From an uncultured Planctomycetia bacterium (GTDB lineage: Bacteria > Planctomycetota > MHYJ01 > WSZJ01 > CAZYRM01): DNA of 64,000 nt. The stretch lies in the NCBI GenBank assembly GCA_964649705.1, contig CAZYRM010000005.1, positions 1,480-65,479 of the forward strand. Direction: 5' to 3'. Numbering within the stretch: the first letter of the stretch is position 1; each line of letters starts with the position of its first letter. The translations under genes and the position numbers were made by a program. The notes beneath the pieces are model-generated. The model was not told the DNA's origin and did no database searches. It saw only the letters and a list, made by a program, of their open reading frames with translations. Shown here in pieces: positions 15,884 to 57,433 of the stretch.

Positions 15884-16127
15884 CACTACAACGAAGCTTC
15901 TTCCAACCGCCCCGAAGGGGCAGCATGGAGCAGCCCAGGGCGCAGCCCTGGGAAAACGCGGTTGTAAGAGGACCGGAGCCCCGAAGGGGCGACATACACG
16001 CCGCGGCGCCGTGTATGTCGCCCCTTCGGGGCTCCGCTCTACCTCCAACATCGTGTTCCCCAGGGCTTCGCCCTGGGCTGGTGCATCTAGCCCCTTCGGG
16101 GCTCGGCGTTCATGGTACGTTGTAGTG
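15884..16127. mobile_element. 244-bp MITE-like element with 10-bp terminal inverted repeats (CACTACAACG / CGTTGTAGTG) flanked by CTAG target-site duplications; interior packed with hairpins
   Basis: TIRs read directly. Internal perfect palindromes: gccccgaaggggc, cagggcgcagccctg, and a long one ccccgaaggggcgacatacacgccgcggcgccgtgtatgtcgccccttcgggg. The paralogous uninterrupted site at 20473-20476 reads CTAC. Confidence 0.55.
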
Positions 16128-19411: not shown

Positions 19412-19801
19412 CTAGGGAGATGGGATACGCTGCTTCACGTCGGCGAGGAGCCTCTCCGCCAGGGCGAGCACGCTCTGGGCCTCCTGGAGCGAGGGCATGG
19501 GCGCTCCGGGCGGCCGTGCGTCCGGGTATCGGACGAGGGTGTAGTAGCCTTGGGCCACCTGAAGTCCGAGAAGGTGGTCCGGAAAGCCGGAATCCACCTT
19601 GCGAACGGCGTGAAACAACTGCTCCAGGTCGTGCGACTGAGGAATACGCCCGGTCAAGTGAAGTAGGAGGGCCTTCAACCCCTTTTCTGCCGCTTGCTGG
19701 CCGTGGAAACAGGCGTGCTTCGCGATGCCGCGGGAGATCAGGACTCGCACGCTCTCGGCATCCTCTTCCGCGTCTGCCAGCCACTCACGCGGGCTTGCCA
19801 T
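19412..19801 (-). CDS. HEPN-domain protein (toxin partner of the minimal nucleotidyltransferase)
   Basis: Start MASPREWLADAEED. HEPN-like helical domain with an R-x4-H type motif (RYPD...). 17-bp overlap with the upstream MNT gene. Confidence 0.75.
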   Translation of the reverse strand: MASPREWLADAEEDAESVRVLISRGIAKHACFHGQQAAEKGLKALLLHLTGRIPQSHDLEQLFHAVRKVDSGFPDHLLGLQVAQGYYTLVRYPDARPPGAPMPSLQEAQSVLALAERLLADVKQRIPSP

Positions 19802-20210
19802 AGAGGACTCTTCCCCTCCCCAGGATCTCATCGCGAACGAAGTAGTTTCCCTGCCGCAACATCTCCCGCCACTCCCCGGGTGTGTAAACGAGGATGTCGA
19901 GAGCCTCGTGCGCATCAGCCGCAATGCGCGCGTCACGGAGGCGGTCAAGGAATGGGCAATCGGTCTCCTTGATCAGGCAGAGGTCGATGTCCGATCCCTC
20001 CCGGGCCTGTCCCCGGGCAAGGCTGCCGAAGAGGATGACACAACTCGGCTGATAGCGCTCCCGCAGGTTTCCCACGATGCGCGTGAGCTCTTCCTCCAGG
20101 ACCGAGGCGCGCTCGACCACGGGTCTGAACTCCTCTGAACGGTCATGATCGTATCGTCCGAGACACGTTCGGACAAGTTGGATCCTCGCCCAACGCGAGC
20201 TCCGCCTCAT
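19785..20210 (-). CDS. Minimal nucleotidyltransferase (MNT) domain protein, HEPN/MNT pair
   Basis: VILFGSLARGQAREGSDIDLCLI, the GS...DxD pol-beta nucleotidyltransferase motif. An alternative GTG start at 20120 has GAGGAG 9 nt upstream. Confidence 0.75.
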   Translation of the reverse strand: MRRSSRWARIQLVRTCLGRYDHDRSEEFRPVVERASVLEEELTRIVGNLRERYQPSCVILFGSLARGQAREGSDIDLCLIKETDCPFLDRLRDARIAADAHEALDILVYTPGEWREMLRQGNYFVRDEILGRGRVLYGKPA

Positions 20211-20217
20211 CGGCCGG

Positions 20218-20469
20218 CTACCGGGCGGGGAGCACGACCTTAGCGTCGGCGGCCTGGCCGGCAACGACGTCGACCTCGAGCGAGGCGCGACGGTCCTCGA
20301 GGACGACCTCGCCCCGATAGCGGCCCGGCGCCAGGTCGTCGCGCGCGATCCGTCCCAAGGCGTCCGAGTCGCCCTGGAAGGGGTCGGAAAGGTCCTCCTG
20401 GCGTAGGGGACGATCGACGACCTGCCCTTGCGCGTCCCAAAGCCCGAGCCTCGCGCGTGCGAGCGGCAA
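20218..20469 (-). CDS. Short ORF with a carboxypeptidase-regulatory-like beta-sandwich fragment; possible gene remnant
   Basis: C-terminal GRYRGEVVLEDRRASLEVDVVAGQAADAKVVLP resembles a CarboxypepD_reg domain. No convincing start context. Confidence 0.3.
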   Translation of the reverse strand: MPLARARLGLWDAQGQVVDRPLRQEDLSDPFQGDSDALGRIARDDLAPGRYRGEVVLEDRRASLEVDVVAGQAADAKVVLPAR

Positions 20470-20474
20470 GCCGT

Positions 20475-21242
20475 CTACGACGCTCCGAACGACCCGTGGC
20501 GGCCGGCGCCGCCGGCGAATTTGAGCGCGCCCGCAAGCGACTCGGATTCAAGGACTCCGGCGCCGCAGCGGAACTCGTTCCGTAACGCCTCGTCGAGTTC
20601 GAGGTGGGCCTGCCCGTAGACGGAGCGACGGTCCGCGAGGACGCAGCCGAAGGGGAACGCCGCGATCTCGCGCGCAAGCTGCTCGGCGGCCTGGCGCGAT
20701 TCCCCGCGCGGCACGAGACGATTCACGAGCCCCATACCCAGGGCCTCGGCGGCGCCTACCGGGCGCCCCGTCAGGATCAGGTCAAGCGCGCGCGACATCC
20801 CCACGAGGCGCGGGAGGCGGACCGTTCCTCCGTCCACGAGCGGGACACCCCAGCGCCGACAAAAGACGCCCAGCACGGCGTCCTCCTCCGCGACGCGCAG
20901 GTCGCACCACAGCGCGAGCTCGAGGCCGCCGGCAACGGCGTGCCCCGCGATGGCGGCGATCACCGGCTTCGACAGCCGCATCCGCGACGGCCCCATCGCT
21001 CCGGGCCCGGTCTCCTCCAGCCGCGGCAGGTCCCCCTTCGCCACGGCCTTCAGATCGGCCCCGGCGCAGAACGTCCCTCCCTCTCCCCACAGGACCGCGA
21101 CTCGCGTCCTCGGGTCGGCGTCGAACTCGCGAAACGCCTCGACGAGACGGTCCGCCGTCTCGCGATCCACGGCGTTACGCACCTCGGGGCGATCGAGGAC
21201 CACGGTCGTCACCTCGCCTCCCCGCTCCACGCGCACGCTCAT
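20475..21242 (-). CDS. Enoyl-CoA hydratase/isomerase (crotonase) family protein
   Basis: Full-length crotonase fold, 255 aa: GGTFCAGADL oxyanion-hole region and AIAGHAVAGGLELAL. Confidence 0.85.
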   Translation of the reverse strand: MSVRVERGGEVTTVVLDRPEVRNAVDRETADRLVEAFREFDADPRTRVAVLWGEGGTFCAGADLKAVAKGDLPRLEETGPGAMGPSRMRLSKPVIAAIAGHAVAGGLELALWCDLRVAEEDAVLGVFCRRWGVPLVDGGTVRLPRLVGMSRALDLILTGRPVGAAEALGMGLVNRLVPRGESRQAAEQLAREIAAFPFGCVLADRRSVYGQAHLELDEALRNEFRCGAGVLESESLAGALKFAGGAGRHGSFGAS

Positions 21243-21294
21243 CGAACACCTCCTCTCGACTGGATTCGCAACAGGTCATTGCCCGCCCTCCCGG

Positions 21295-22098
21295 CTAGGC
21301 CGGGTGGCCGAGGGCGATCAGGTAGACGACGGTCTCGCGCGAGTCGATCTTCAGCGTCTCCGCGACGCCCGCCTCGTGGAAGCCTCCGATCGGGCAGCAC
21401 GCGAGACCCAGGGCCGTTGCTGCCAGGATCAGGTTCTGCGCCAGGTGACCCGCGTCGAGCCAGACGAAGCGGTAACCCCGCTCGCCGTACTTGCGCAGCG
21501 TGCGCTCGAAGACCGCAGAGAGGACCAGAACGACAGGCGCCGAGAGCTCCTCTTCGGCCGTCATCACCGAGGAGGCCAGCGCGTCGCGGATGGGGCCCTC
21601 GAAGAGCGTCTCGAGGCAGGAGTCGACGGGGTCGTAGTGGTGCGCCCCCGCGTAGGGGCCGTCGAGGACCGCGGCGTAGAGCTCGATTGGGTAGATCCCC
21701 CCCGCGCTCGGCCAGGCGCGAAGCCGCTGCACGAGACCGCTCGTCCCAGGGACGGGAAGCTCCCCCGTGACGCCCGCCGCCGATCCGAGGAGGCGGCCCA
21801 GGAGGCCGAGGTCGAGAGGCCTCCGTGCGAAGCGGCGGACGGTGCGGCGACGGCGAAGGACGCTCCAGAGGGAGGCCATGCGCCAGGCCCGCCCCGCGGG
21901 GAGCGGAGTCCGCTTTGCGCCGGGATACGTTCGCCGCGCCTGGGTCGACTCGATCATCGCGTCCGCGTCGTCGAGGAAGTGGCGGATAGGCTCGGTGCGC
22001 CATGCGCCGACGTTCGGCCCGAGCTTCGATCCGTCGAGGTGCGTCCTCGCGAGCGGCCAGGTCTCCACGTCGTCGAGCGGTGTAGGGTTCCAGCGCAT
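21295..22098 (-). CDS. SagB/ThcOx-type nitroreductase-fold dehydrogenase (TOMM B protein)
   Basis: Start MRWNPTPL with GGAGGAG upstream. AGGIYPIELYA and YRFVWLDAGHLAQNLILAATALGLACCPIGGF are typical of SagB-type FMN dehydrogenases. Confidence 0.8.
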   Translation of the reverse strand: MRWNPTPLDDVETWPLARTHLDGSKLGPNVGAWRTEPIRHFLDDADAMIESTQARRTYPGAKRTPLPAGRAWRMASLWSVLRRRRTVRRFARRPLDLGLLGRLLGSAAGVTGELPVPGTSGLVQRLRAWPSAGGIYPIELYAAVLDGPYAGAHHYDPVDSCLETLFEGPIRDALASSVMTAEEELSAPVVLVLSAVFERTLRKYGERGYRFVWLDAGHLAQNLILAATALGLACCPIGGFHEAGVAETLKIDSRETVVYLIALGHPA

Positions 22099-22111
22099 GG
22101 GCTCCTCCAGG

Positions 22112-23179
22112 CTACGGGATCGGATGGGGCGATCGATTCCGGACGACGAGGCCGGGCGCGCCGAGGAAGGGCCAGTCCTCGATCGCATGCAGCGGCGCGA
22201 GACCGGGGACGATCGCCTTCACCACGTGGAACCCCGCGCAAGCGAGGTCCGACGACGTAAGGTCCTTCCACCAGGGCGCGTACCCGGCCGCGAGGAGCGC
22301 CTCACGCGGATCGACGCGGCACGCGGTCGGCGCCCGCCTCGGACCGGTGCGAAACAGGTCGAGCACCGCACGCCGCTCCGCGTGGTCCGTGTAGAACCTC
22401 GCGTGGTCCTCGAACGACTCCAGCCTGTCCCGCGGAGTCGACCTGCGGACGAGGGAGCGCACGTAGATTTGCCCGAGCTCCGCCTCGAGGTGCGCCTTCC
22501 CGAGCGCCTCGTCGAACGTCCGCGCCGCCGCGGTGCCTACCGAGACGACGTCGCGCTCCACGAGCACCGCCGCGACGGGAACGCCGAGCCGCCCCGTCAG
22601 GTCGACCGCGTGGGCGCCGGCCAGATCCACCGTCGGCGCCGGCTCCCCCGCGAACCACCAGCGGACGAAGGCGTCCCGCTCGATCGCCTCCAGCAACGCG
22701 GAGTCGAGCGCCGAGTCTACCGTCGGCCCGGCAGCGAGCCCTGTCGAGAGCGACGGGCCGAAGACCGCCTCCCCCGCCGCCGGCGCGTACGGGATGTACA
22801 CCGCGAACGCGGGGGCCGAGCGGGGCCGCCCCGTGGCCAGGTCGATCCCCTCCACCCACGCGCAGGGACCTTCGCTCGCGAAAGGGAACCCCGGGCCTCG
22901 TCGCTGCTCGTCCGAGAACGGCGCGACGTCGCCCGGCAGCACCGCGCCGGCCGGCGGCGGACCGACGACGCGCGCGAACCCCGCCGGCGTCGACGCCCCG
23001 TACCGCTCCGCCGCCTCCCCGAGGCAACGCAGCAGCGCCTCCTCGCGCGTCCACCCTCCCCCCGCTGCGTTCGGGAGACACGCCCCCCGACCAAGCGCCG
23101 CGGCGTCGCACAACTCCGCGGCGAACGCGAACATGGGCGGGTCCGACTCCGAGCGGACCGCCTCCACGACGCGGCGCAC
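22112..23179 (-). CDS. YcaO-domain cyclodehydratase (TOMM D protein); start uncertain
   Basis: GGGWTREEALLRCLGEAAERY and a C-terminal FHVVKAIVPGLAPLHAIED match YcaO. The frame stays open to 23887, but upstream residues are junk overlapping the C-protein gene. Candidate starts are GTG 23179, GTG 23167 and ATG 23134. Confidence 0.6.
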   Translation of the reverse strand: MRRVVEAVRSESDPPMFAFAAELCDAAALGRGACLPNAAGGGWTREEALLRCLGEAAERYGASTPAGFARVVGPPPAGAVLPGDVAPFSDEQRRGPGFPFASEGPCAWVEGIDLATGRPRSAPAFAVYIPYAPAAGEAVFGPSLSTGLAAGPTVDSALDSALLEAIERDAFVRWWFAGEPAPTVDLAGAHAVDLTGRLGVPVAAVLVERDVVSVGTAAARTFDEALGKAHLEAELGQIYVRSLVRRSTPRDRLESFEDHARFYTDHAERRAVLDLFRTGPRRAPTACRVDPREALLAAGYAPWWKDLTSSDLACAGFHVVKAIVPGLAPLHAIEDWPFLGAPGLVVRNRSPHPIP

Positions 23180-23216
23180 GACGCCGACGTGGCGGCCGAC
23201 CAGCGCGCGGAAGGCG

Positions 23217-23978
23217 CTACGCGCCGCAGTCGGGACAGCCGGGGACGGCCCAGACGGACTCACTCCCTCCCTCCAACGTCTCGAGGTCGACGACGAACAC
23301 CCGTCCCGCCAGGAGCGGAGGGGCGTGGCGACGCGTGAACCGCTCCACCTCCGCGGCGGCCAACGCGGCGACCGCCGCCGCGTGACGGTCGGGCCCCGAC
23401 GGCCCCAGCGATCGGTCGAGCGCGGCCCAGGCGCGCTCGGCGTCCGGGTGCGCGCGATGACTCGCCAGCCGCGCTCGGTAGCAGCCCCAGCACGCCGTCT
23501 CGCCGGGGACGAAGAGCGGCCCCACGCGGGCCCACGAGCCCTGGAGCGAGACGAGGAGCCACGGACGCCGCGAGTCCAAACGCGCGCGATTCCACCCCCG
23601 CATCTCCGACGGCCGCATGACCTCCTCGTGCACGACGGCGACCTCGTCCCCCTCCTCGACGACCTCCCCATCCAGCAACGGACGGAGCCTCGGCCATAGC
23701 GGGCTCTCCCCCACCAGGCGGACGCGCGCGCGGCGCGGGACGGACGCGGCCTCCTCGAGCACGCCCGCGGCGGCGAGCCGATCGATCGCGCGGTCGGTCT
23801 CCGTCTGCGGGACGCCGTCGAGGGCAACGAGGTCGCGGCCATCGAGGATCCCGAGCAGCTCCCCGATCCATGGCTCGGGGGCGCCATCGAAGAGGTAAAC
23901 CTCGCGGTCCCCTCCGCGGACGTGGAGAGGCGGACCAGGGACGACGACGAGCCCGGCGCGGAGCCTCGGCCTCTTCAT
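23217..23978 (-). CDS. E1-like TOMM docking/cyclodehydratase C protein
   Basis: Start MKRPRLRAGLVVV, ATGA-coupled to the upstream gene. PWLLVSLQGSWARVGPLFVPGETACWGCYRARL plus a C-terminal PGCPDCGA gives two CxxC pairs, as in SagC/McbB-like E1 homologs. Confidence 0.6.
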   Translation of the reverse strand: MKRPRLRAGLVVVPGPPLHVRGGDREVYLFDGAPEPWIGELLGILDGRDLVALDGVPQTETDRAIDRLAAAGVLEEAASVPRRARVRLVGESPLWPRLRPLLDGEVVEEGDEVAVVHEEVMRPSEMRGWNRARLDSRRPWLLVSLQGSWARVGPLFVPGETACWGCYRARLASHRAHPDAERAWAALDRSLGPSGPDRHAAAVAALAAAEVERFTRRHAPPLLAGRVFVVDLETLEGGSESVWAVPGCPDCGA

Positions 23979-24637
23979 TTCGCGTCGTTCAGGTAGGCGG
24001 GGTCCTCGCGGCGGAGGCGCTCGATGCGGTCCTCCACGCGCGTCAGGACGACCTTGAGCGCGTCCCGCAGGATGGCCCGCTCCAGGAAGGCGGGGACGGG
24101 CATCCCCGACTCCGCGTGGACCTCGTACCGCGCGAAGGTGCGCGAGGCGTCGATCGGCACGAGGACCCACCTCCCCTCGTTTACGGGGAGGCTCCCGCCG
24201 AACCGCTTCCATCGCTCCACGCGCTCGCGATCGCCGACCTCGACGTCGACGTCGATCTCCGTGTAGCGATCGACGAGGAAGTGGAAGTCGATTCGCACGC
24301 GCTTGTGCGAGCCCGACTGCTCCGTCACCTTGAGCTTCGCCATGCGCGGCATGAAGTCGGTCATCCTCTCGTGGTCGTGGACGACCTTCCAGACCTGGGC
24401 GATCGGGGCCTCGACGAGGGCGGAGATCTGGATCCACGAGGCGCCATTGCGGCGGACCAGGCGGCTGTCGACGTCTCCGCGGACGAGCCCCGCGGCGTCG
24501 GTTCGCTCGGCCTCGGTCCAGGTCCCGCGGAAGGCCGGCCACGCGAAGGCGAGCAGGCCGACGAGGACGACCGCGCGGAGGACGCGCCTCTTGCGGGGCG
24601 GCGGCGCAGGGGTCGGTTCCGGGGTCGCGTCGGGCAT
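23975..24637 (-). CDS. SRPBCC (START/Bet v1-like) domain protein with an N-terminal TM anchor
   Basis: N-terminal TM helix (VVLVGLLAFAWPAF). The domain pattern VHDHERMTDFMP...KRVRIDFHFLVDRYTEIDVDVEV...RYEVHAESG fits a polyketide-cyclase-like fold. Confidence 0.7.
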   Translation of the reverse strand: MPDATPEPTPAPPPRKRRVLRAVVLVGLLAFAWPAFRGTWTEAERTDAAGLVRGDVDSRLVRRNGASWIQISALVEAPIAQVWKVVHDHERMTDFMPRMAKLKVTEQSGSHKRVRIDFHFLVDRYTEIDVDVEVGDRERVERWKRFGGSLPVNEGRWVLVPIDASRTFARYEVHAESGMPVPAFLERAILRDALKVVLTRVEDRIERLRREDPAYLNDAK

Positions 24638-24638
24638 G

Positions 24639-24992
24639 CTAGCGGAAGGTCCCCATGGCCGTGTCGATCAGGAACCCGATCCCCGCGCCCGCAGCGCCGC
24701 CGAGGACGGCGAAGGCTACGAAGCGCACGAGCGTGCCGAGGATGATGCCGAAGACGCCGACGTCGCGCTGGGCGGCCTTCCCTCCCCCGCGTACGCCGGA
24801 GACGATGCCGAGGCCACCGCCGACGAGGAGCCCGATCCCGCCTCCGACGAACGTCAGGCAGCAGCAGGTCGTGGTGCAGCAGAGGAGGCGGTTCGCGGGG
24901 GAGCCCGCCGGCGGGAAGTCGTCGGACCGTCGTACCGACCAGTCGCTCACGCCCGTCCTCCATCCACGTTGCGAGGACTCTACGCTCGCCAA
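24639..24992 (-). CDS. Small Cys/Thr-rich protein with two glycine-zipper TM helices
   Basis: LLCCTTTCCCLTFVGGGIGLLVGGGLGIVSGV...FGIILGTLVRFVAFAVLGGAAGAGIGFLI. 1-bp gap to the downstream gene. The N-terminal 36 aa are hydrophilic. Confidence 0.5.
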   Translation of the reverse strand: MASVESSQRGWRTGVSDWSVRRSDDFPPAGSPANRLLCCTTTCCCLTFVGGGIGLLVGGGLGIVSGVRGGGKAAQRDVGVFGIILGTLVRFVAFAVLGGAAGAGIGFLIDTAMGTFR

Positions 24993-25024
24993 CGAACGAC
25001 GTCAACGAACGCCGGCACGGTTCC

Positions 25025-26818
25025 TCAGCGGCCTCGGTCGACTGGGCGCGGTCGGATCAGCGACGCGATCTCGCTCTCCTCGGGGCTGGAAACTGCACCC
25101 GCCACCAGGCGGTCCACGGTCCTCTCGCCGTTCGGGCGCTCCCACTTGCAGGACCACGGAGTCATGCCGCCGGAAGGGCACGGGAGGCCCACCGCGATGG
25201 CGTCCCTCCCCGCCCGCTCCTTCGCCTCCTCGTCGAGGAGGTCCCGGGCCTGGTCCATCACGATGGGGCCGCCGTGGGGACGGAACACGACCGCCGCCGA
25301 AGTCGTCCCGGCCCTGCCGGGAAGGGCGAGGAGCCTCTCACCCACCCTGGGGCGGTACGGCGAGGGGCACTCCTCGATGCGTCCGTCGGTCCTGCGCACC
25401 ACGAATCCCGTCCTGAACCGGTCGCGGATCTCCTGCGCGGCGGGGAGCACCCTGTCCGCGGGGAGCAGGGCGACGACGTCGTCCCCGCCTACATAGAGAG
25501 GAACGCCACCGTGCCTCCGGAGCACTTCGGGGACGCAGCGCAGGGCGAAGTCCGCGAGCGCCTCGCTGAGGAACAGGTGGACGGCCGGCGTCACCCAGCG
25601 CTTGCCCTCGGGCGGGGCGACCGCCTGCGAGTGAAACACGTCCTTCCACGTCGCGAAGCCTGGCGCGGTCCCCCCGCTGAGACCGCTGCTGTGATCCCCG
25701 TCCATCACGAGGAGGGCCAGGTCGTCGGCGGCGGGGACCGCCCTGCCTCGAAACACCTGGTCGAGAGGCGCGGGGAGGTCTACCAGCGGGAGCAGGCGCT
25801 TCGTATGGCAAGCCGCGCACAGCGGCTCTCCATGCGGCAGGGCCGCCCGCCCGCAGGCGGCGCAGGTCCGGCCCGGTTCCCGCCGGGCAGGCAGGCGCCG
25901 CACCGCCTCGGAGAGCTGCCTCTGGTTCCGCTCGAAGCACTCCCGGTAGGAGGCGGCGAGTCCCTGCGTCCCCGAGGTCCGCCACGAGGTCGCCTCCCAG
26001 GCGAACTCCCACGTGCGATCGCACTCCTGCTCCCATGCCGCTCGGTCCCCCTCCACGCGGTCGGCCACGCACGAGGCGAGCCTCCGCCACTCGGCGCGGA
26101 TCGCCTCGGCCATGCGCCCCGCGAGCGAGTCGGCGATGGGCTGAGGGACAAGGGCGAGGATGCGGTTGGAGAGTCCCGGGAGGGCCAGCTCGTCCGTCGA
26201 CGTCGGGGCGCCGACCCATTGTCGGAACAGCGGCTGGCGGGAGACGCACGGGTAGATCACGTGGTCCGGCCCGAGCTCCTCGCACACGGTGCGGAGCCCG
26301 ACCCAGACGAGGTACGAGGCGATCCACGTCCCCGTCCACAGCTCTTGGAACGACGACGCGGACCACGCGAACGACCGCACGGGTCCCACGGCGAATCCGA
26401 GGAGGGCCGGGTCGCCGTCGCACGCGGCGAGCGCGCTCACGAGGGCGCCGTGGTGCCACACGGACGAATCGGGCACGAGAGGGTCCGCGGGGAACCTGGG
26501 CCACGCGCCGCCGACGACCTCGTCCGCGTCGGCCAGGAATTCCGGCAGCACCGCGAACTGGCGGAGAAACGCGTCGCGCCCTGTGCGGGCGTGGTCGAGA
26601 ACTCTGGCGAGGACCTTCCACGCCGCCACGCGCGGGACGTCGACCGACACTCGCGCGGGGGAGATCGAATGTGTGACCTCGACGCGCTCCGGGAGGCAGG
26701 CTTCGCCACAGGGCTCGGCCAGGTGATCCTCGATCTCGCGGATCTTCGGCTCGACTTCGCCCCCCAGGGACCCACGGAGGGCCGAACGAAAGACGTGGGC
26801 CTTCTCCTCCCAGTTCAC
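25025..26818 (-). CDS. Cas10/Cmr2-like palm-domain (cyclase/polymerase) protein lacking an HD domain; solo, with no other cas genes in the window
   Basis: Palm1-like GPVRSFAWSASSFQELWTGTWIASYLVW. Treble-clef Zn finger CAACGRAALPHGEPLCAACH (C-x2-C-x11-C-x2-C). Second palm with LVMDGDHSSGL and GGVPLYVGGDDVVALLPAD (the GGDD motif). Confidence 0.7.
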   Translation of the reverse strand: MNWEEKAHVFRSALRGSLGGEVEPKIREIEDHLAEPCGEACLPERVEVTHSISPARVSVDVPRVAAWKVLARVLDHARTGRDAFLRQFAVLPEFLADADEVVGGAWPRFPADPLVPDSSVWHHGALVSALAACDGDPALLGFAVGPVRSFAWSASSFQELWTGTWIASYLVWVGLRTVCEELGPDHVIYPCVSRQPLFRQWVGAPTSTDELALPGLSNRILALVPQPIADSLAGRMAEAIRAEWRRLASCVADRVEGDRAAWEQECDRTWEFAWEATSWRTSGTQGLAASYRECFERNQRQLSEAVRRLPARREPGRTCAACGRAALPHGEPLCAACHTKRLLPLVDLPAPLDQVFRGRAVPAADDLALLVMDGDHSSGLSGGTAPGFATWKDVFHSQAVAPPEGKRWVTPAVHLFLSEALADFALRCVPEVLRRHGGVPLYVGGDDVVALLPADRVLPAAQEIRDRFRTGFVVRRTDGRIEECPSPYRPRVGERLLALPGRAGTTSAAVVFRPHGGPIVMDQARDLLDEEAKERAGRDAIAVGLPCPSGGMTPWSCKWERPNGERTVDRLVAGAVSSPEESEIASLIRPRPVDRGR

Positions 26819-26826
26819 GGCTCACC

Positions 26827-27447
26827 TCACGCGTCGGCCCGCTTCGCCTGGGCGAGCCTCTCCTTGAGGCCGTCGATCGTGCGGGCCAGGATGCCCAGCA
26901 CGACCTCCTCCCGCTCCTCCAGCGACGTGGTCTCGATCAGGTGGTACCTGACCCCGGCGTTGCGCAGGTACCCCTCGATGCGCGCGGCGACGTCCGCCCG
27001 CTCCTTGAGCGTGGAGGTCTTCCAGGGCTTCTTCTTCGTTCGGTATTCCAGGACGGGAGGGAGCAGGAAGACCGCGTCGTAGGAGGCGATCTCCTGGATC
27101 GACCACTTGAAGAGCTTGTGGACGACCATGACCTCGCGGGGGTCCTTGGGATCGAACCCCCAGAAGCAGGCCCAGACGAACGGGATGAAGGTCGCCGAGT
27201 CGCAGACGACGATCTCGCTGTTCGCGAGGTCGTCCTCCCGCCGCTTCTGCCCGAGGTAGATCATGACCTGGTCGAGAGAGTCCTGACGGCGTCTCTTCGT
27301 CGGCTTGACGTAGCGGGCCAGGTAGGTGCGCGCGTACTCGAGCGCGGTGTCGACGCTGTACCCGAGCATGCTCAGCGTGTTGGCGACCCTCCGCGCGAGG
27401 ACGGTTTTCCCGCTTGAGGGGGCGCCGACGATGGCGATTTTCCGCAA
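26827..27447 (-). CDS. P-loop NTPase (AAA_28/NadR-like predicted kinase/ATPase)
   Basis: Walker A IAIVGAPSSGKTV and Walker B-like VVCDSA. 206 aa. 8-bp gap to the Cas10-like gene. Confidence 0.75.
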   Translation of the reverse strand: MRKIAIVGAPSSGKTVLARRVANTLSMLGYSVDTALEYARTYLARYVKPTKRRRQDSLDQVMIYLGQKRREDDLANSEIVVCDSATFIPFVWACFWGFDPKDPREVMVVHKLFKWSIQEIASYDAVFLLPPVLEYRTKKKPWKTSTLKERADVAARIEGYLRNAGVRYHLIETTSLEEREEVVLGILARTIDGLKERLAQAKRADA

Positions 27448-27466
27448 CGTCTCCCTCCGCGACGGA

Positions 27467-28630
27467 TCAGCGCCCCTTGCCGAGGCGGGCCTGCCAGGCC
27501 TTGAGGAGCGCCGCGCGGGAGGCCTCCGTCCAATCGGCGGGCAGATCGGGGCCGCTCCCGAGCAGGCCCTCGAGCTCCTTATGCACCAGTTCCACGAGCG
27601 TCTTGCGGTGCGCGACCTGGTTCGCGGGGACCGCGTCGGCCTTCGGGAACGCGCCGAGGAGCGCCTCCGCCGACGAGCGCTTCGCCTTGTCGCCGCAGCG
27701 GGAGCCGATCGAGGCGACTGCCTGCACCGAGGTCCGCGTCACGCCGTTCAGAAAGTCGCCGCTCGTCGCGAAGGGACGCAGCGCTTCGATCGCCGAGGCG
27801 TCTCCCATCGCGCCGAGGGCGTCGGCGGCGTGCATCCTGAGGACGTTCGGATTCCGCGAGGCGACCTGCGGCGAGTCCGCGTCCTTCAGGAGCGCGAGGA
27901 CCGCCTGGGAGGCGCCGGCGTCGCCCGCGGCCTTGAGCGCGTCGAGAACGGCGAAGCGGAACGGGTCGCTCTTCACCTCGAGCAGTCCCTTCGCGCGCTT
28001 CACCACCACGCCCGCATCCGTCCCCACGAGGTTCTGCAGCGCGCGGAACCGAACCACGGGGTCGGCGTCGCCGACGAGCGTCGCCGCCTTCGCGTGCGAC
28101 TTCTTCGCCGCCGTCGCGTCCTCGAGCTCGCACGCGGTCGCGTCCGGATCGTCCCCGGCGGCCGCCTTCCCCTTCTTCACGCGCGACGCGGCCGCCTTCA
28201 CCGCCGAGAGAAACCCGCCGAGCTCCCGGCCGGTCTCGGAGAGGACCTCCTGCGAGGACGGGTCGACGAGGAAGAGGTTCGGGTAGGTCGTTACGCTGAA
28301 ACGGATCTCGACGCGCTCCGCCGCGCGGTCCCGCTCGTCGTTCTTGAAGTCGCGGTACACCCAGACCCAGACCACGTCGCCGTAGACGGCCTTCAACTCG
28401 GCCTTCGGGAGCAACTGCTCCTCCACCACGACGCAGGCGGGTCAGTAGGTCTTCGTAAAGTAGAGGAAGAGCGGCTTCCCCGCGGAGAGGGCCTCCTTGC
28501 GGGCCTCGGGGTAGCTCATCTGCCACGGGGGCCCCGCGACGGGGGTCTCCCCCGCGAAGAGCGGGACGGCGAAGAGGAGCGCGGCAAGCGTGCGCGTCGG
28601 CATGGTCACCTCCCTGGCGGAAGGCGGCAT
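27467..28630 (-). CDS. Candidate selenoprotein: secreted thioredoxin-like (Thioredoxin_7/DUF255-type) domain fused to HEAT repeats, with in-frame TGA (28442-28444) at the first Cys of the CxxC motif
   Basis: ORFs 28442..28630 and 27467..28429 are in the same frame, separated by a single TGA. Read through, the fold motif is KPLFLYFTKTY-U-PAC-VVVEEQ (U-x-x-C where W-C-x-x-C is expected). Signal peptide MPTRTLAALLFAVPLFAG. C-terminal HEAT/PBS-lyase-like repeats. Confidence 0.6.
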
Positions 28631-28655
28631 CCTATCGCCGCGCAGCGGGAGGAGT

Positions 28656-29432
28656 CTACCGTTCCCTCGACTTCGTCACCAACACGCGGCGCGTCATCGC
28701 GACCGAGACCTTGCCCTTGCTCGAGGAGAGCTTCGTCGAGTAGTCCTCGTCGAGGAGGCGCAGGTACCCCTGCGTCACATTGAACTCGAGGGCCACCTTG
28801 CCGTGCGCCTCCGCCCGCGCGCCGCCTCGTTCCTGCTTCCCCTTCGCCGTCCCGTCGAGGAAGGCGATCTCGTCCTTCCCCTCGCTGCGGATGTCCCGGA
28901 CGCGCACGCGGAGCGAGATTGACCCCTTGTCGAGCTCCCACTCCTGGTCCTCCTTGATCGGGTCCTCGGGGAGCTGGAAGAAGAGCCCCGCGAAGTGGAC
29001 CGCCAGCTCCACGCCACGGGCCACGCCGTCGAGGTCCGAGGCGTCGACCGACAGTCCCCCCATGCGCCCCAGCTCCACCTTCACGGTCGAGCCGGAGAGC
29101 TCCTTCTCGTCGAGGTCGACCTTCGCCTCGCGCTCGCCCGCGTCGAGCGACGCGCGGATGCGGCGGAAGCGGAGCACCGCCTTCGCGTCGCCATCGTCGT
29201 CGACCTCGGTGATGCGGAGCTCCGCCGAGACCTCCGCCCTGAGTTCCGCCTCCTTCTCCCGCCCCTGGGTCGTGTCCTCGGTGTCGACCGCCGAGGTCAT
29301 CGAGAAGTCGTAGCGGTCGCCCGTGCGGGGCTTCCACTGGATCCGCCTCGCCTCGTCGGCCCAGGCCGCGGAGACGAGGAGGAGGACGAGCGACACGCAG
29401 CGAAGACCCAGCACTGCACACCCCCTGGACAA
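28656..29432 (-). CDS. Secreted hypothetical protein (charged, K/E/D-rich)
   Basis: Signal peptide MSRGCAVLGLRCVSLVLLLVSAAWA. The overlapping 345-aa ORF is a frame artefact. Confidence 0.6.
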   Translation of the reverse strand: MSRGCAVLGLRCVSLVLLLVSAAWADEARRIQWKPRTGDRYDFSMTSAVDTEDTTQGREKEAELRAEVSAELRITEVDDDGDAKAVLRFRRIRASLDAGEREAKVDLDEKELSGSTVKVELGRMGGLSVDASDLDGVARGVELAVHFAGLFFQLPEDPIKEDQEWELDKGSISLRVRVRDIRSEGKDEIAFLDGTAKGKQERGGARAEAHGKVALEFNVTQGYLRLLDEDYSTKLSSSKGKVSVAMTRRVLVTKSRER

Positions 29433-29970
29433 TCGACTCGAAACCCCGTGGACACCCTTCGCGGTTCGGCCCCCGCGCGTAAGGACTTGCGCGCGGGCGC
29501 GTCGGCGGACACAATGCGTGCTGCCAGATCGGTGCCAGGGCGGCGTGTCCGCCCGTTTCCCCGGGGGAAACGGAGGTTACGCCCGGGTGATCGGACACCT
29601 CGCGCACTCTCCGCGGTGCGTAACTCCCGTGCCGGTCACTCACCTATGTTGAAGTCGCACCGTGAGCGAGTACGTTCGGGGCCCTTATCTCATTACGGGA
29701 CCGTAACCTACGCATGAGGGAGGTCCGGATTGATCGGGATTCGCGTCGAATCGCGGGAGACTCACCTTGGTGCGAGCGAACCCAGGTGAGCCACGACGAT
29801 GATGCAATGCACTGTGAAAACAGTCGTTAGAGAAATGCAGAGCGACTCACTCTGGTTCCACGCAGGCTCACCCAGGTGCGCCTTGCGGCGCTGCTCGGAG
29901 CCGAGCCGGGGTGATCGGCTTGCGAGCTAGAGCTTGGGGTCTATTGGGTTTCGAGGGAAAGGAGCGCGCC

Positions 29971-32844
29971 ATGGGCAAGAGCGATCCGCTCAGGCCCGCG
30001 AAGGGCAGCCGGGGCGTCGTCCTCATCTTCTCCATCGCCGTCCTCGGGATGCTGGCCCTCCTGGCCTTCACCTTCGCCAGCATCTCCCGCGTCGAGCGGA
30101 ACGTGTCGCGCAACTACGTCGACCAGGTCCGCTCCAAGATGCTCGCCACCTCGGGCGTCGAGGTCGCCGTGGGCCGCCTCACGCAGGAGATCCGCGACCC
30201 CGCCACAATGCTCCGCCACAAGTTCTACGGCGAGGACATGAACGAGGACGGCGTCGCCAACCCCGGCGAGGACGTCAACGGGAACGGCTGGGAGGAGGAG
30301 AGCTGCCCCCTCAACCGCGCGCCCCACCCCTCCTACATGCACGACGTGAATCGCAACGCCCGCGCCGACGCGGGAGACATGCTCGACGTCGAGGGGAAGC
30401 TCGTCGGCGTGACGGGCATCCTCCCCTCCACGTACACGCAGAACGGCGACATCTACTCCGTCAAGGTCAGCGACCTCTCGCGGAAGCTCAACGTCAACAT
30501 GGACGGCCACCCGCACCTGCAGCCGATGCTCGAGAACCTCTGCGAGGTCTCCGGCCTCGGGCGCGGCCTTGGCACCCGGCTCTTCCAGAACCGTCCCTAC
30601 GGCTCCCTCCTCGAGATCCGCGACCGCCTGCGCCTGACGGCGACGGAGTTCGAGAAGGTGAAGAACCTCTTCACCGTCTACGGCTGGTTCGACAAGAAGG
30701 TCGTCAACGCCGTCCCCCTGAACCAGCGCATCCGCGCGGGCCTGGCCGTGGGGACCTACGTCTACACGTGGGAGGAGGTCCGCCCGCGCCGCATCGACTT
30801 TCCGAAGGACGCAAACGGGACCGTCGTCGGCCGCTGCCCCGTCAACGTCAACCTCGCGCCGCGCGAGGTCCTCATCGCGCTCCTCTGGAACCTCACGGGG
30901 TTCTACCTCGACGAGGAGAGCCTGAGCACCGACGTGAACGACGGCTACGCCTTCATGAGCGTCTTCTACACGTACAGCGGCGCGAACGGCGCGCTTGGCC
31001 AGATCCGCCAGGCCCCCCCGATCTCGCGCACTCAGGCGGAGCGGGTCGCCGACGCGATCGTCGCCCGCCGCCGCGCCACTCAGTTCACGACGTGGCAGGA
31101 CTTCAACAAGTTCCTCTGGGACGACTGCTGGACGAGCGGGATCCTCTCGCGGCAGCAGATGGACGTCCTCAAGGCGAACTTCAACCCGAACTCGCAGATC
31201 AACGACTTCAACCCCGAGTACTTCCGCTTCGCCTGGGTGGACAAGACCGACCTGACCTATTGGACGACGGAGCTGACGTTCGCGCCGGCGGGGTACTACG
31301 AAGTCGAGTCGATCGGACGGGTCCTGAACCAGTTCCGCCAGATCGTGGCGGAGAGCGAGGTCCTCGTCGACGTGAAGATGTTCGACATCTATCGCGAGTC
31401 GACGCAGAAGGACTTCCTCTATGATCAGTGGAAGAACAACGACGACATCAAGGACAACATCATCAGCCGCGAGCGCGGATCGGGGAAGACCTCCGGCGAC
31501 CTCTCGCTGATGGTCTACCCGGAGATGCCGAACCCCGCGTGGACGAAGGACGCCGACTACGACGGCCACATCACGCTCGCGACGAAGGAGTCGTCCGGAG
31601 CGAGCGCGGACTTCCTGGCGACGTACTTCGAGCGGGGCCTGAACTCCGACAGCGGCCACACCTTCGTCAGGGACGCGAACGGGCCGTACTTCGACAAGCT
31701 CGTCAACCAGGCGGGCGGGTCGGGCTCCTGGAAGCCCGGGAAGCTCTTCCCCGACGGGGTCTACGCGGAGCTCGACAGCGTCGCGATGTACGACTACATG
31801 CCGCGGAACCCGAACAGCTTCTCGGCCTCCTTCTGGATCAAGCCGCACTTCTTCCCCGAGCACGCGGGGCGGAGCCGCGTCTTCATGACGTGGCAGAAGA
31901 ACACGGGAGACCCGTACATCCCCGTGATGCCGCTCGGCGTCTACTGCACCGTGACGAGCTTCATCGAGTCGACGAGCGAGGGCGGCTACGAGTACCAGGA
32001 GCCCTGGGACACGCCGGCGATCCTCGCGGGCGGGACCGTGGAGAGCTACGAAGGGGCCTGCGCGACGCCCTGCATCAACCACCTGGAGCACGGCCACGGG
32101 TCGATCGACCGCGGCGGAGAGACGTGGGGGACGATGTTCGAGGGAGGGAAGTGGCTGCACGTCGGGTGGATCCACGACGGCGAGAGGTTCGAGGGGCGCG
32201 GGTACGACTACCCCGCCACGCACCACGAGAACATGGACGTGCTCTACGTCAACGGCAGGAAGGTGTCGGGCGTGTTCGCCTACCAGACGGGCGACGTGAG
32301 CACGCCGACGCCCTACGACGGCGAGATGCTCAGGCTCGGCGAGAGGCGGACCGCGGGGGCGATCAACACCGTCCCCGACGCGACGATGGACGAGGTCATC
32401 GTGTGGGACCGCGTGAACCCGAACTCGGAGAACCGCATCCTCGACGAGTTCAACGACGGGCGCTTCTACAACGAGGAGGACGGAACGTTCACGAGCCGCG
32501 CGATCGACCTCGCGGCGGAGGCGAACCTCCCGCCCGGCACGCCCGTCCAGATCGCGACGGTCGCGTGGACGCCGTTCGTCCCCGTGAGCCTTCCCAACGG
32601 GCGGATCACGGTCGAGCTCGTGAAGGCGTACGACCGTTCGGGCCTCCCCGGTGGGCGCGAGTACACGCAGCCCGGCGGGGAGAAGGCCGACGTCATCGCC
32701 GGAGAGCCGATCCGCTACCGCGTGCACTTCTATCCCGGCGTGGGCGGCGGGGACGGGATCGTCGACTCCCTCGTGTTCGACGACATCACGATCACGCTGA
32801 CGAAGGGCCCGAGATTCCTTTCCTGGGCCTGGGTGATGCAGTAG
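29971..32844 (+). CDS. Large membrane-anchored extracellular protein (possible GspK/pseudopilin-like N-terminus)
   Basis: Start MGKSDPLRPAKGSRGVVLIFSIAVLGMLALLAFTFA with AAAGGAG upstream. Single N-terminal TM, then ~900 aa extracellular. Confidence 0.65.
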   Translation: MGKSDPLRPAKGSRGVVLIFSIAVLGMLALLAFTFASISRVERNVSRNYVDQVRSKMLATSGVEVAVGRLTQEIRDPATMLRHKFYGEDMNEDGVANPGEDVNGNGWEEESCPLNRAPHPSYMHDVNRNARADAGDMLDVEGKLVGVTGILPSTYTQNGDIYSVKVSDLSRKLNVNMDGHPHLQPMLENLCEVSGLGRGLGTRLFQNRPYGSLLEIRDRLRLTATEFEKVKNLFTVYGWFDKKVVNAVPLNQRIRAGLAVGTYVYTWEEVRPRRIDFPKDANGTVVGRCPVNVNLAPREVLIALLWNLTGFYLDEESLSTDVNDGYAFMSVFYTYSGANGALGQIRQAPPISRTQAERVADAIVARRRATQFTTWQDFNKFLWDDCWTSGILSRQQMDVLKANFNPNSQINDFNPEYFRFAWVDKTDLTYWTTELTFAPAGYYEVESIGRVLNQFRQIVAESEVLVDVKMFDIYRESTQKDFLYDQWKNNDDIKDNIISRERGSGKTSGDLSLMVYPEMPNPAWTKDADYDGHITLATKESSGASADFLATYFERGLNSDSGHTFVRDANGPYFDKLVNQAGGSGSWKPGKLFPDGVYAELDSVAMYDYMPRNPNSFSASFWIKPHFFPEHAGRSRVFMTWQKNTGDPYIPVMPLGVYCTVTSFIESTSEGGYEYQEPWDTPAILAGGTVESYEGACATPCINHLEHGHGSIDRGGETWGTMFEGGKWLHVGWIHDGERFEGRGYDYPATHHENMDVLYVNGRKVSGVFAYQTGDVSTPTPYDGEMLRLGERRTAGAINTVPDATMDEVIVWDRVNPNSENRILDEFNDGRFYNEEDGTFTSRAIDLAAEANLPPGTPVQIATVAWTPFVPVSLPNGRITVELVKAYDRSGLPGGREYTQPGGEKADVIAGEPIRYRVHFYPGVGGGDGIVDSLVFDDITITLTKGPRFLSWAWVMQ

Positions 32845-35308: not shown

Positions 35309-35370
35309 CATATCTGATGTCAGAGCTCAGATATCAGATATCTGATATCTGAGCTCTGATATCAGATATG
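35309..35370. repeat. 62-bp near-perfect AT-rich palindrome built from CTGATATCAG units
   Basis: catatctgatgtcagagctcagatatcagatatc|tgatatctgagctctgatatcagatatg. The reverse complement is identical except for one G/A position. ~35% GC in a ~70% GC genome. Intergenic, 17 bp after the stop of the gene upstream. Confidence 0.8.
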
Positions 35371-45623: not shown

Positions 45624-45981
45624 CGAGGCGGTCGCGACCTGTCGGTTCGCACTGCTTGCCTGCGGTCGCCCTTCGCACCGTCCGTGACCCGCCTCAACCC
45701 CCGGCCCCGCGCGGGATCACGGTCTTCCAGGCCCTCGATCCACACATCGACCAGGACTTGTTGAGCCCAGATGAACCTGCTACGATCTTGCTGTACAGGT
45801 TCGCTGCCAGTCTTGCACGCAGGCGCGGGTGACCCTCCAGAGCCCCCAATTCCCAGTGGCGTCGCGCTCTGTGTCGGGACTCGGTCCCAGGGGACGGTGC
45901 GTTTGCTCGGAAGGGTTGCTGACCTGATTCCCGGCGGATGAGGCCACGCTTCATGCTGGCGCTGGCCGAGGCGGCACGCAA

Positions 45982-46989
45982 ATGACGGCCGACACGCTCA
46001 AACGTATTGTTCGCGCAATCGCGAGCGGCTCACAGCTCGACCTTGTCCGCCTTGCGCGGCAACTCGTTGAGCGTGAGCGCCGAATGGGTCACGCCAGGCT
46101 CGCATCGGAACTCGACAGCCTCCTAGTTCGAGTTCCGCGTGAAGGAAACCGTGGGACCCCGTCAATCGACTCAGCATTCGGGCTCAAGGAACTTCCCCTG
46201 AGCCGCCGCTACGGTGAACTCCTCGCCACGATCCTCCCGCGCGAGACGCTTGAACACCACATGGTACTCCCCGCCGAGACCGAGACCCGGTTCGCACGCA
46301 TCGAGTGCGAGTACGCGGCCCGCGAGCGACTCGGGGTCTACGGCCTCCGCCCGCGGAAGACGATCCTCCTGTACGGTCCGCCTGGTTGCGGGAAGTCCCT
46401 TGGGGCGAAACGGCTCGCGTGGAACACAGGTCTGCCGCTGATCAAGGTTCAGTTCGACACTTTGATCTCCTCCTACTTCGGCGAGTCAGCGGCCAACTTG
46501 CGTGCAGTATTCAGCAGCGCAAAGGCGCGCCCCTGCGTTCTGCTGCTGGATGAATGCGACTTCATCGCACGCTCGCGAACCAACACGAAGGACATCGGGG
46601 AGGTGTCACGTATCGTCAATGCTCTCCTCCAGTTCATGGAGGAATATGATGCACCGGGCCTGCTGGTCGCTACGACCAATGTAGAGTCGTCTCTGGACCC
46701 GGCCCTGTTCCGCCGATTTGACGATGTATTCCTGATCCCGCCACCGGGCCCTGCAGAAGTCGAGAAGCTCCTCCGCATGACCCTGTCCGCGGTTGAACTC
46801 GCGCACACGCTGGAGTGGCCGCCGATTGTGGGACAGTTATCCGGCGCGTCGGCAGCGATGGTCGTGAAGGTGGCACAGGACGCGGCCAAGGCGGCCGTTC
46901 TGACTGGCGGCAAGCTCGTCACAGAATCGCACGTTCAGCAGGCGATTGCGGAACTTCGGAGGGGAGAAAACCCCGCGAAGGGGGATTGA
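45982..46989 (+). CDS. AAA+ ATPase (classic AAA family)
   Basis: Walker A LLYGPPGCGKS, Walker B VLLLDECD, and sensor/arginine-finger regions. Confidence 0.8.
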   Translation: MTADTLKRIVRAIASGSQLDLVRLARQLVERERRMGHARLASELDSLLVRVPREGNRGTPSIDSAFGLKELPLSRRYGELLATILPRETLEHHMVLPAETETRFARIECEYAARERLGVYGLRPRKTILLYGPPGCGKSLGAKRLAWNTGLPLIKVQFDTLISSYFGESAANLRAVFSSAKARPCVLLLDECDFIARSRTNTKDIGEVSRIVNALLQFMEEYDAPGLLVATTNVESSLDPALFRRFDDVFLIPPPGPAEVEKLLRMTLSAVELAHTLEWPPIVGQLSGASAAMVVKVAQDAAKAAVLTGGKLVTESHVQQAIAELRRGENPAKGD

Positions 46990-46992
46990 GGA

Positions 46993-49668: not shown

Positions 49669-49696
49669 ACACGGCACGTCCAGAGGGCAGAGATCA

Positions 49697-56859: not shown

Positions 56860-57433
56860 CTCCTTCGCAGTTGCAGGGAAGTGTGGGGAAGTAGAGGTCC
56901 CGGTTCTTGGGGTCTTCTTGGGAGGAGACCGTGATGTAGTGGGGATCGCCGCGCAAGTGGCGCTCGAGGAACTCGTCGGCATCGTGCGAGGTACCCGTGC
57001 GGAGGTCGTCAGGCCATCGCCAGGGGTTCGCATGGTCCTCGCGAGGCGATCACCGTGAGCCTGTCCGGCGATCGAGAGGGCCATCTCACGTTCTCGCGAT
57101 GCAGCCGCGTGTACGTCACGACCCGCACACCAGGCGGTGGCGAGGAACTCGATCGGCGATCTTCAGACGCTTGCGCGATCCCCGCGACGAAGTCGCCACC
57201 ACCTCGTGATGGCCACCTCATGCATTCGTCAGGAAGACGAACGGCCATCGTGGATCTCCATCGAGCCCCTCGCGAGGCACCCGTCGATTCCCCGTGACCT
57301 ATACCCGATCCGCTCGCACGGACCTCGGACTGTATCCGTCAGGACATGGAGAGACCCTCGTCAGGAAGTCGACGCCGACTCGCCAGGCGTCTGCGAGGCG
57401 ATCGCGAGCAAGCCGTAGAGGTCTCGCCACAGT

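Follow-up and report, generated by a model that had tools for sequence, protein, structure and literature searches.

The minus strand of a 64,000-nucleotide stretch of contig CAZYRM010000005.1 from an uncultured Planctomycetia bacterium (the whole stretch analysed here, hereafter the window) carries two closely packed genes. One encodes a 597-amino-acid (aa) protein derived from Cmr2, the Cas10 of type III-B CRISPR–Cas systems, and the other a 206-aa AAA_28 P-loop protein with a nucleoside/nucleotide-kinase fold (Table 1). In canonical type III CRISPR systems, Cas10 generates the signal and is switched on by target RNA on a CRISPR RNA (crRNA) complex. Genes were called from G+C at third codon positions (GC3) in the window, whose overall G+C content is ~70%; both open reading frames (ORFs) lie where a preliminary description of the sequence had placed them, with the same 8-bp spacing. 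Their GC3 is of the coding type (0.89 and 0.95), and the N termini of both proteins agree with those of their homologues. Judging from the junction, the two genes are probably translationally coupled. Both are under purifying selection, with ratios of non-synonymous to synonymous substitution rates (dN/dS) of 0.285 for the Cas10-like gene and 0.214 for the kinase gene at dS 0.37–0.57; the Cas10-like gene was compared with a 73%-identical homologue (locus L001) at dS 0.57.

The pair belongs to a run of co-oriented minus-strand genes that spans 29432–20475 by the GC3-based call. In the direction of transcription, genes for a 258-aa protein with no Pfam match and for a thioredoxin-like/HEAT protein with an in-frame TGA precede the AAA_28 and Cas10-like genes, which are followed by genes for a small Gly-rich protein (containing LLCCTTTCCCLTF), an SRPBCC protein, an E1-like protein, a YcaO protein, a SagB-type nitroreductase, a crotonase and an MNT/HEPN pair. 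The selenoprotein candidate and the thiazole/oxazole-modified peptide (TOMM) cassette that had been reported on the same strand are thus both found there. A protein that is 100% identical (P0020) places the window in a Planctomycetota genome assembled from groundwater. The same operon is present on contigs labelled 'Hain_H51', and no known RNA or riboswitch was detected in it at E values up to 0.1.

Table 1. Positions of the Cas10-like/kinase-like gene pair, its domains and the surrounding elements in the window
Feature	Position	Strand	Remarks
Cas10-like (Cmr2-derived) gene	25025–26818	−	597 aa, GTG start
AAA_28 P-loop protein, nucleoside/nucleotide-kinase fold	26827–27447	−	206 aa, TTG start; Walker A GAPSSGKT at 27403–27426; conserved EYAR and CDSA motifs
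Junction, kinase-like stop codon to Cas10-like GTG start	26819–26826	−	8 nt, tgaGGTGAGccGTG; Shine–Dalgarno-like GGTGAG; read directly from the sequence
Vestigial HD-domain remnant, residues 1–~105	26504–26818	−	FLHDPP His-Asp dyad changed to VFRSAL; ADRPG region deleted; His of 'THxIS' (H50) kept
Palm1/Cmr2_N, residues 139–248	26075–26404	−	PF12469; canonical GPVQxFIxxAR(K/R/S)xxDLWxGS degraded to GPVRSFAWSASSFQELWTGT
Four-Cys zinc finger (C319, C322, C334, C337)	25808–25864	−	Invariant in the five closest clade members
Catalytic palm2, residues 367–542	25193–25720	−	M-D373-G-D375 at 25694–25702; G444-G-D-D447 at 25478–25489; PF22335 and P. furiosus Cmr2 alignment
Sigma-70-like promoter match	24977–25005	−	TTGACG-17-TAGAGT; in the 74-nt gap after the Cas10-like stop; weak, consensus only
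TOMM-type cassette	21295–24992	−	Small Gly-rich protein, SRPBCC, E1-like (no Pfam match), YcaO (2e-38), SagB-type nitroreductase (3.9e-29)
Thioredoxin-like/HEAT gene	27467–28620	−	Signal-peptide-like N terminus; in-frame TGA at 28442–28444 in 'FTKTY-U-PAC' (UxxC)
MNT + HEPN overlapping gene pair	19412–20264	−	Toxin–antitoxin type; end of the minus-strand run
Probable defence island	41037–56859	+	G+C 63–66%
Acido-Lenti-1 small RNA	15908–15952	−	43 bits, cutoff 37
Two 27-nt direct repeats	16011–16107		Near the Acido-Lenti-1 match
AT-rich palindromic tandem repeat	35310–35369		ATATCTGATATCAG units, 28-nt period, 90% match; intergenic gap
Four tandem 33-nt repeats	57403–57575		69–77% identity; no confidently called gene

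The assignment of the 597-aa protein to Cas10 is borne out by hidden Markov model searches, in which it exceeds the curated thresholds of the Cmr2_N family PF12469 (E = 1.3e-22; 80.5 bits, cutoff 25), the palm2 family PF22335 (8.7e-17; 61.9 bits, cutoff 27) and the Cmr2 equivalog model TIGR02577 (115 bits, cutoff 79.4); it also matches the PADLOC Cas10 model (1.8e-53). The best solved relative by sequence (phmmer) is P. furiosus Cmr2, with residues 104–241 aligned to Cmr2 205–340 and residues 367–553 to Cmr2 611–776. An AlphaFold model computed from a 20-sequence alignment is confident (predicted local distance difference test score (pLDDT) 89.5, predicted template modelling score (pTM) 0.92) and adopts the Cmr2 fold, with which the preliminary description had proposed a structural comparison. 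A GGDEF diguanylate cyclase (PF00990; GG(D/E)EF motif, homodimer) was considered and rejected, as the protein does not have the characters of that family.

The motifs quoted earlier from the translation are all present and invariant across the clade of short homologues described below: D373-G374-D375, G444-G445-D446-D447, the four cysteines and the GPVR segment of palm1. The DxD, GGDD and zinc-binding Cys residues are kept without change though clade members are only 35–42% identical; D373, G374, D375 and G444–D447 are invariant in the 20-sequence alignment, and C319 is nearly so in a wider Cmr2 alignment. An insertion in palm2, FRTGFVVRRTDGRIEECPSPYRPRVGERLL, is clade-specific and common to the short clade and its sisters. 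From these residues the Cas10-like protein looks catalytically competent. The 'full Cas10 core' first attributed to it holds for palm1, the zinc finger and palm2 with its GGDD, and does not extend to the C-terminal D4 domain, which is absent. Similarly, the HD nuclease domain said to be missing has lost its His-Asp dyad, while residues 1–~105 persist as a vestigial HD domain.

An exhaustive profile search with the Cas10-like protein over 1.84 billion representative proteins yielded 4768 Cmr2-type matches. Only ~10 proteins score at the level of the clade, namely P0003 (the window's own cluster), P0004, P0030, P0032, P0034, P0035, two fragments, and the longer P0031 and P0033; below these, scores drop to the level of ordinary Cmr2 proteins of ~900 aa. 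The D4 domain contacts the small subunit in Cmr complexes. Short members stop just past palm2 and so lack D4, the window protein ending ~40 residues after palm2; P0031, P0033 and P. furiosus Cmr2 extend at least 100 residues beyond it. By alignment, P0031 and P0033 retain the HD motifs 'FLHDPP' and 'ADRPGVPG' together with a C-terminal helical domain, and the HD dyad of the short members is degraded ('VFRSAL' in the window protein, 'FLHPAP' in P0030, 'YLRGIV' in P0032). The palm1 signature GPVQxFIxxAR(K/R/S)xxDLWxGS is present in 15/15 ordinary long Cmr2-type proteins and in both sisters (2/2), and is degraded in every short member that covers the region.

In a neighbour-joining tree (34 taxa, 756 columns, 200 bootstraps), the short clade is monophyletic (197/200), is sister to P0031/P0033 (188/200) and is nested among ordinary Cmr2 proteins. 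P0031 itself is encoded in a canonical operon, in the order Cas_NE0113 (Csx1-like), RAMP (Cmr1), Cas10, Cmr3, RAMP (Cmr4), Cmr5 and RAMP (Cmr6). Given this nested position, the P0031 operon and the lost domains, the short clade is a secondary, reductive offshoot of type III-B Cmr2 rather than an ancestral stand-alone cyclase. The family is small, comprising ~5 independent lineages, all of them from metagenome-assembled genomes (MAGs) or metagenomes. A scan of genome contigs recovered 22 ordinary Cmr2 loci and no clade member beyond the known L004 MAG, a metagenome scan with the kinase alignment recovered the known L001 contig and one 29%-identical homologue and no others, a scan of viral contigs found no copies, and a further homologue search with the clade alignment did not bring up the intermediate proteins.

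The partner had been described as a Walker-A ATPase/kinase-like neighbour, and it does carry a Walker A motif and a nucleoside/nucleotide-kinase fold. It matches PF13521 AAA_28 (5.5e-21) above the gathering score and over the whole profile, and so has the features that define the AAA_28 family. The fold resembles those of the NadR ribosylnicotinamide kinase, NRK1 and dTMP kinase. A NadR-type ribosylnicotinamide kinase was rejected, with TIGR01526 and NF005988 scores of 44.3 (cutoff 341) and 23.6 (cutoff 201) and a single 206-aa domain that has no fused nicotinamide mononucleotide (NMN) adenylyltransferase. The PADLOC Csx3 model gives a weak match (E = 0.0014) limited to residues 2–27, the P-loop. 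Close kinase homologues are few (56–89% identity) and form a narrow, highly conserved subfamily, which has so far been seen, wherever this could be checked, only with a short Cas10-like gene or in genomes having one.

Adjacency of the two genes recurs across lineages, as a comparison of gene neighbourhoods shows. The pair is separated by 8 nt in the window and L009 and by 2 nt in L001, and overlaps by 14 nt in L004, where the Cas10-like protein is 37% and the kinase 65% identical to that of the window. In L036 the order is reversed, with the Cas10-like gene (40% identical) first and a 4-nt overlap, and in L037 a C-terminal fragment of the Cas10-like gene is followed by the kinase gene 1 nt away. 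None of the 22 ordinary Cmr2 loci from reference genomes has an AAA_28 homologue (0/22). Because kinase-linked members span the base of the clade on the tree, the Cas10-like/kinase linkage looks ancestral to the clade.

In one MAG (GCA_009885955.1), a 56%-identical kinase orthologue (L005) and the Cas10-like P0032 (L044) are on different contigs. At L044 (5792–12223), P0032 is clustered with an adenylate-kinase-like gene, a distant paralogue of the AAA_28 gene and the gene for a DHH-family phosphoesterase of 925 aa whose N- and C-terminal domains are repeated. Contigs from three sequencing runs carry this cluster, a neighbourhood of nucleotide metabolism that may reveal further components of the pathway. 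Close upstream of P0035 and P0034, on the same strand, are GGDEF genes, respectively a GGDEF-EAL gene 20 nt away (L039 1–1407) and a Peripla_BP-GGDEF gene two genes away (L040 6187–8538), which could reflect chance or a link to cyclic di-GMP. A 464-aa ORF that overlaps the start of P0034 was considered as an alternative partner and rejected, as its product is a secreted GH5-like protein unrelated to the L039 partner.

The locus is also separated from CRISPR machinery. No CRISPR array was found in the window: both TRF and a direct-repeat search with spacing up to 120 nt returned repeats in coding sequence only. Pfam and PADLOC scans of individual flanking genes and non-kinase unknowns gave no matches to cas, CARF or SAVED families, and individually scanned window genes gave none to RAMP, Cmr3 or Cmr5. 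For 34 further ORFs scanned as a pool, no Cas families were among the best 25 families listed (mostly kinase and TPR), a less complete negative; 10 non-kinase ORFs were then scanned directly. The nine adjacent minus-strand genes (secreted protein, thioredoxin-like/HEAT protein, small Gly-rich membrane or precursor-like protein, SRPBCC, E1-like, YcaO, SagB-type nitroreductase, crotonase and the MNT/HEPN pair) were considered as divergent Cmr subunits and rejected, as Pfam and PADLOC identified no RAMPs among them. The earlier statement that no Cas7/Cas5, Cas6, Cas1/2, CARF/SAVED genes or arrays lie nearby agrees with these scans, for the 34 pooled ORFs among the families listed. Of the features that make up a type III-B system, the protein lacks D4 and the catalytic His-Asp of HD (optional in some subtypes), the window genes scanned individually include no cmr1/3/4/5/6 genes, and the 64 kb show no array. 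The six distinct contexts of clade members (L001, L004, L036, L039, L040 and L044) contain no cas genes either; P0004 (L004 10001–11545) carries the NCBI name 'type III-B CRISPR-associated protein Cas10/Cmr2', yet the 21.5 kb examined of its 32.8-kb contig hold no further cas gene. That the protein has lost D4 and its palm1 signature speaks against a distant cmr locus elsewhere in the MAG.

The genes that surround the pair are diverse. Downstream lies the TOMM-type cassette, a candidate pathway for a ribosomally synthesised and post-translationally modified peptide (RiPP), whose small Gly-rich protein has a Cys/Thr-rich stretch, is a possible precursor, and has a likely GTG start at 24950 with GGAGG upstream. 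The sigma-70-like match before it is unique in 20000–30000, where shuffled sequences average 0.1, and this site is probably the 3′ boundary of the pair and the start of the TOMM transcription unit. Only in the window and its close relatives (at least 73% identity) is the pair followed by the cassette, which L004, L036 and L037 lack. In L001 an opposite-strand dehydrogenase gene stands between the upstream HEAT gene and the pair. Because the TOMM genes accompany close relatives only, and because of the promoter-like site and the opposite-strand gene in L001, we treat the TOMM cassette and the selenoprotein candidate as neighbours rather than parts of the unit.

The thioredoxin-like/HEAT protein is likely a selenoprotein. 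A hairpin ~11–20 nt downstream of its in-frame TGA has a folding free energy of −31.2 kcal/mol (z −2.2), and in L001, L009 and L011 gene callers break the gene into two parts of 53 aa and 315 aa, as would fit an in-frame UGA that is conserved. The MNT/HEPN pair is also present in L009. On the plus strand, the probable defence island holds a gene for a 1528-aa helicase (PADLOC PDC-S37 E = 0, 1054 bits; Hhe 7e-144), followed by type I restriction–modification (R-M) genes (MTase_I 6e-230, HsdM_N, N6_Mtase, SWI2_SNF2). Acido-Lenti-1 is the sole Rfam match above its gathering score in the window. The palindromic repeat at 35310–35369, whose surroundings are otherwise 70% G+C, may be an operator or a replication or recombination site, and the 33-nt repeats at 57403–57575 may lie in a repeat-containing coding region, since their period is a multiple of 3.

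Our interpretation, which concerns catalytic activity, the substrate–product relation of the two enzymes and their cellular role, starts from what was observed directly: homology, fold, motif conservation, domain loss, phylogenetic origin, pairing and purifying selection. We lean towards a reduced Cas10 that works outside CRISPR, in a two-gene unit with the kinase, and makes a nucleotide-derived messenger or metabolite. The preliminary description had likewise proposed a Cas10 cyclase uncoupled from a crRNA–protein complex and serving as a nucleotide signalling module, a proposal supported by the homology, the fold, the lack of cas genes and an array in the window, and the conserved pairing. 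In such a unit, the GGDD site of the Cas10-like protein would join or cyclise nucleotides without a guide RNA complex, and the kinase would either make a phosphorylated substrate for the altered palm1 (acceptor) side or phosphorylate the product; together the two would yield the messenger or metabolite. An altered acceptor site would be in keeping with the changed palm1 motif. Bolder, and in our estimate a little short of an even chance, is the proposal that the clade represents a second independent escape of Cas10 from CRISPR–Cas, after mCpol/Panoptes, in which a two-palm Cmr2 has co-evolved with the kinase to make an undescribed guide-free messenger or phosphorylated conjugate.

Several observations weigh against this picture. 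The independent lineages are few (~5) and metagenomic only; P0034 and P0035 have no AAA_28 gene in their available sequence; and upstream of one kinase homologue (L038, a 2.3-kb contig) lies a multihaem cytochrome gene instead of a Cas10-like gene. Because the kinase is conserved far better than the Cas10-like protein (65% versus 37% between the window and L004), it could have an independent housekeeping role, with an adjacency that does not stem from a shared pathway. The kinase model is moderate (pLDDT 68), with lid and substrate regions below 50, so that the substrate is not readable from it, and neither a receptor nor an effector (CARF, SAVED or membrane protein) is conserved beside the pair. 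Defence and housekeeping signalling are about equally plausible as roles for the unit. Towards defence point the MNT/HEPN pair ~5 kb away and the PDC-S37/Hhe-like helicase and type I R-M genes 14–30 kb away; away from it point the mostly metabolic character of the other contexts, the unusually high conservation of the kinase and the viral contigs without copies.

The same evidence bears on a guard or toxin–antitoxin arrangement of the Panoptes kind, which we consider unlikely. Here a constitutive product of the Cas10-like protein would keep a kinase-like toxin inactive until a phage sponges or degrades the nucleotide, and the freed partner would be toxic, perhaps through depletion of a nucleotide or NAD-precursor pool, leading to abortive infection. 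Such an arrangement has a model in mCpol, a CRISPR-free Cas10 relative that is constitutive and has an inhibited effector (PMC12657230, PMC12657218), and tight coupling, overlapping ORFs and both gene orders are typical of such pairs; other defence genes (HEPN-MNT, the PDC-S37/Hhe-like helicase, type I R-M) also share the window. However, the partner consists of a kinase fold of 206 aa and nothing more; no cyclic-nucleotide sensor domain can be recognised in it, and its conservation is unusually high for a defence effector. Its orthologue is unlinked in one MAG, a separation that a toxin–antitoxin pair would tolerate poorly, most other contexts are metabolic rather than defence islands, and viral contigs lack copies.

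It is improbable that the Cas10-like protein still serves as the large subunit of a split type III-B Cmr system, with the array and the genes for the remaining subunits at another place in the genome, beyond the window. The protein passes the TIGR02577 cutoff and NCBI names its L004 homologue Cas10/Cmr2, short HD-less Cas10 proteins occur in real III-B complexes (for example 9arw and 9lq5), and ~25 kb of the 89-kb source contig, with the rest of the MAG, lie beyond the window. Against these points, the clade as a whole lacks D4 and the HD dyad and has a degraded palm1 signature; six clade contexts have no cas genes, whereas the operon of the sister P0031 is complete; the adjacent position has been taken by another conserved gene, that of the kinase; and the 64 kb contain no array.

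Very improbable, too, is an accessory function in the TOMM pathway, with the Cas10-like protein and the kinase acting as modifiers or regulators of the RiPP that the precursor-like, E1-like, YcaO and SagB genes downstream of them produce. The genes share a strand, are tightly packed and keep this arrangement in the window, L009/L010 and L001–L003, but the loci with this synteny are close relatives (Cas10-like proteins 73–100% identical) and therefore little informative. More distant pairs have no TOMM genes, with an aldo-keto reductase and an aminotransferase after L004 and a PDZ protein after L037; the promoter-like site separates the Cas10-like stop from the first TOMM gene, and in L001 an opposite-strand gene separates the upstream HEAT gene from the pair. 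A dead relic, or a purely structural or regulatory protein that keeps the Cas10 fold without nucleotide chemistry, would fit the degraded palm1 motif, the decayed HD domain and the inactivity of canonical Cas10 without a target-bound crRNA–protein complex (PMC12657230), but is scarcely to be expected of a protein whose DxD, GGDD and zinc Cys are invariant at 35–42% identity, whose dN/dS is 0.29 and whose model is confident and well packed.

To our knowledge, Cas10-type enzymes were not known to act outside CRISPR before the 2025 work on mCpol and Panoptes. The short clade, which is rare, would belong with the CRISPR-derived cyclases that act outside CRISPR, and our search of the full-text literature, which did not cover subscription-only papers, turned up neither a Cas10 + AAA_28 pair nor a solo two-palm Cas10 clade. 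If the reduced Cas10 and its kinase do act as one unit, they would mark a different exit from CRISPR than that of mCpol, in which a whole Cmr2 has dropped just those elements that anchor it in the complex and acquired a kinase as partner. An active enzyme would provide a naturally guide-independent Cas10 for studying cyclase regulation, could have new product chemistry given the altered palm1 and the kinase, and would show clearly that a CRISPR effector subunit can be exapted by reduction. Annotation pipelines would wrongly flag genomes with such a gene as type III carriers by the Cas10/Cmr2 label, which is to be expected because the L004 member is so named and the window protein passes the TIGR02577 cutoff.

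Compared with type III-B Cas10/Cmr2 (P. furiosus Cmr2, PDB 4w8y and 3ung; A. fulgidus, 9x25), the Cas10-like protein is homologous but has an HD remnant without the dyad, no D4 and a degraded palm1, and its genes stand in six contexts without cmr or cas genes or an array nearby, with a kinase-like partner conserved instead. That partner differs from the NadR ribosylnicotinamide-kinase domain, a relative within AAA_28, and from eukaryotic NRK1 and dTMP kinases in having neither NMN adenylyltransferase nor helix–turn–helix domains, and it scores far below the NadR cutoff. Csx3-AAA and AAA-Csx3 proteins are type III accessories with small P-loop NTPase domains linked to Cas10 signalling (Shah et al., PMC6546367). 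Unlike them, the partner has no Csx3 or CARF domain and its match is restricted to Walker A, which makes this a loose parallel in which the ATPase families were not compared.

A chemical parallel may be offered by the III-B Cas10 that makes SAM-AMP, an S-adenosylmethionine (SAM) conjugate, in the CorA-associated system of Bacteroides fragilis, which is discussed in PMC11229360; this Cas10 uses an acceptor other than a nucleoside triphosphate at its palm1-side site and is accompanied by product-processing enzymes such as NrN/DHH-type phosphodiesterases. The changed palm1 motif of the short clade may point to an altered acceptor, and the clade member at L044 also adjoins a DHH-family gene; the SAM-AMP systems, however, remain in crRNA-guided complexes with a CorA effector, whereas the pair has no SAM-related or CorA genes. 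Like mCpol of Panoptes (PDB 9mnr; PMC12657230, PMC12657218, PMC13577387), the short clade has a Cas10-type palm outside CRISPR–Cas and would act without a guide RNA. It has two palms, unlike mCpol, which is a homodimer of a single minimal palm of ~120 aa, and in place of the adjacent 2TM-beta or CARF-TM effector of Panoptes, to which no neighbour has a PADLOC or Pfam match, it adjoins a soluble AAA_28 kinase fold. The Cas10-type palm of mCpol works constitutively without RNA (PMC12657230), and therefore provides a precedent for constitutive, CRISPR-independent nucleotide synthesis by a Cas10 fold.

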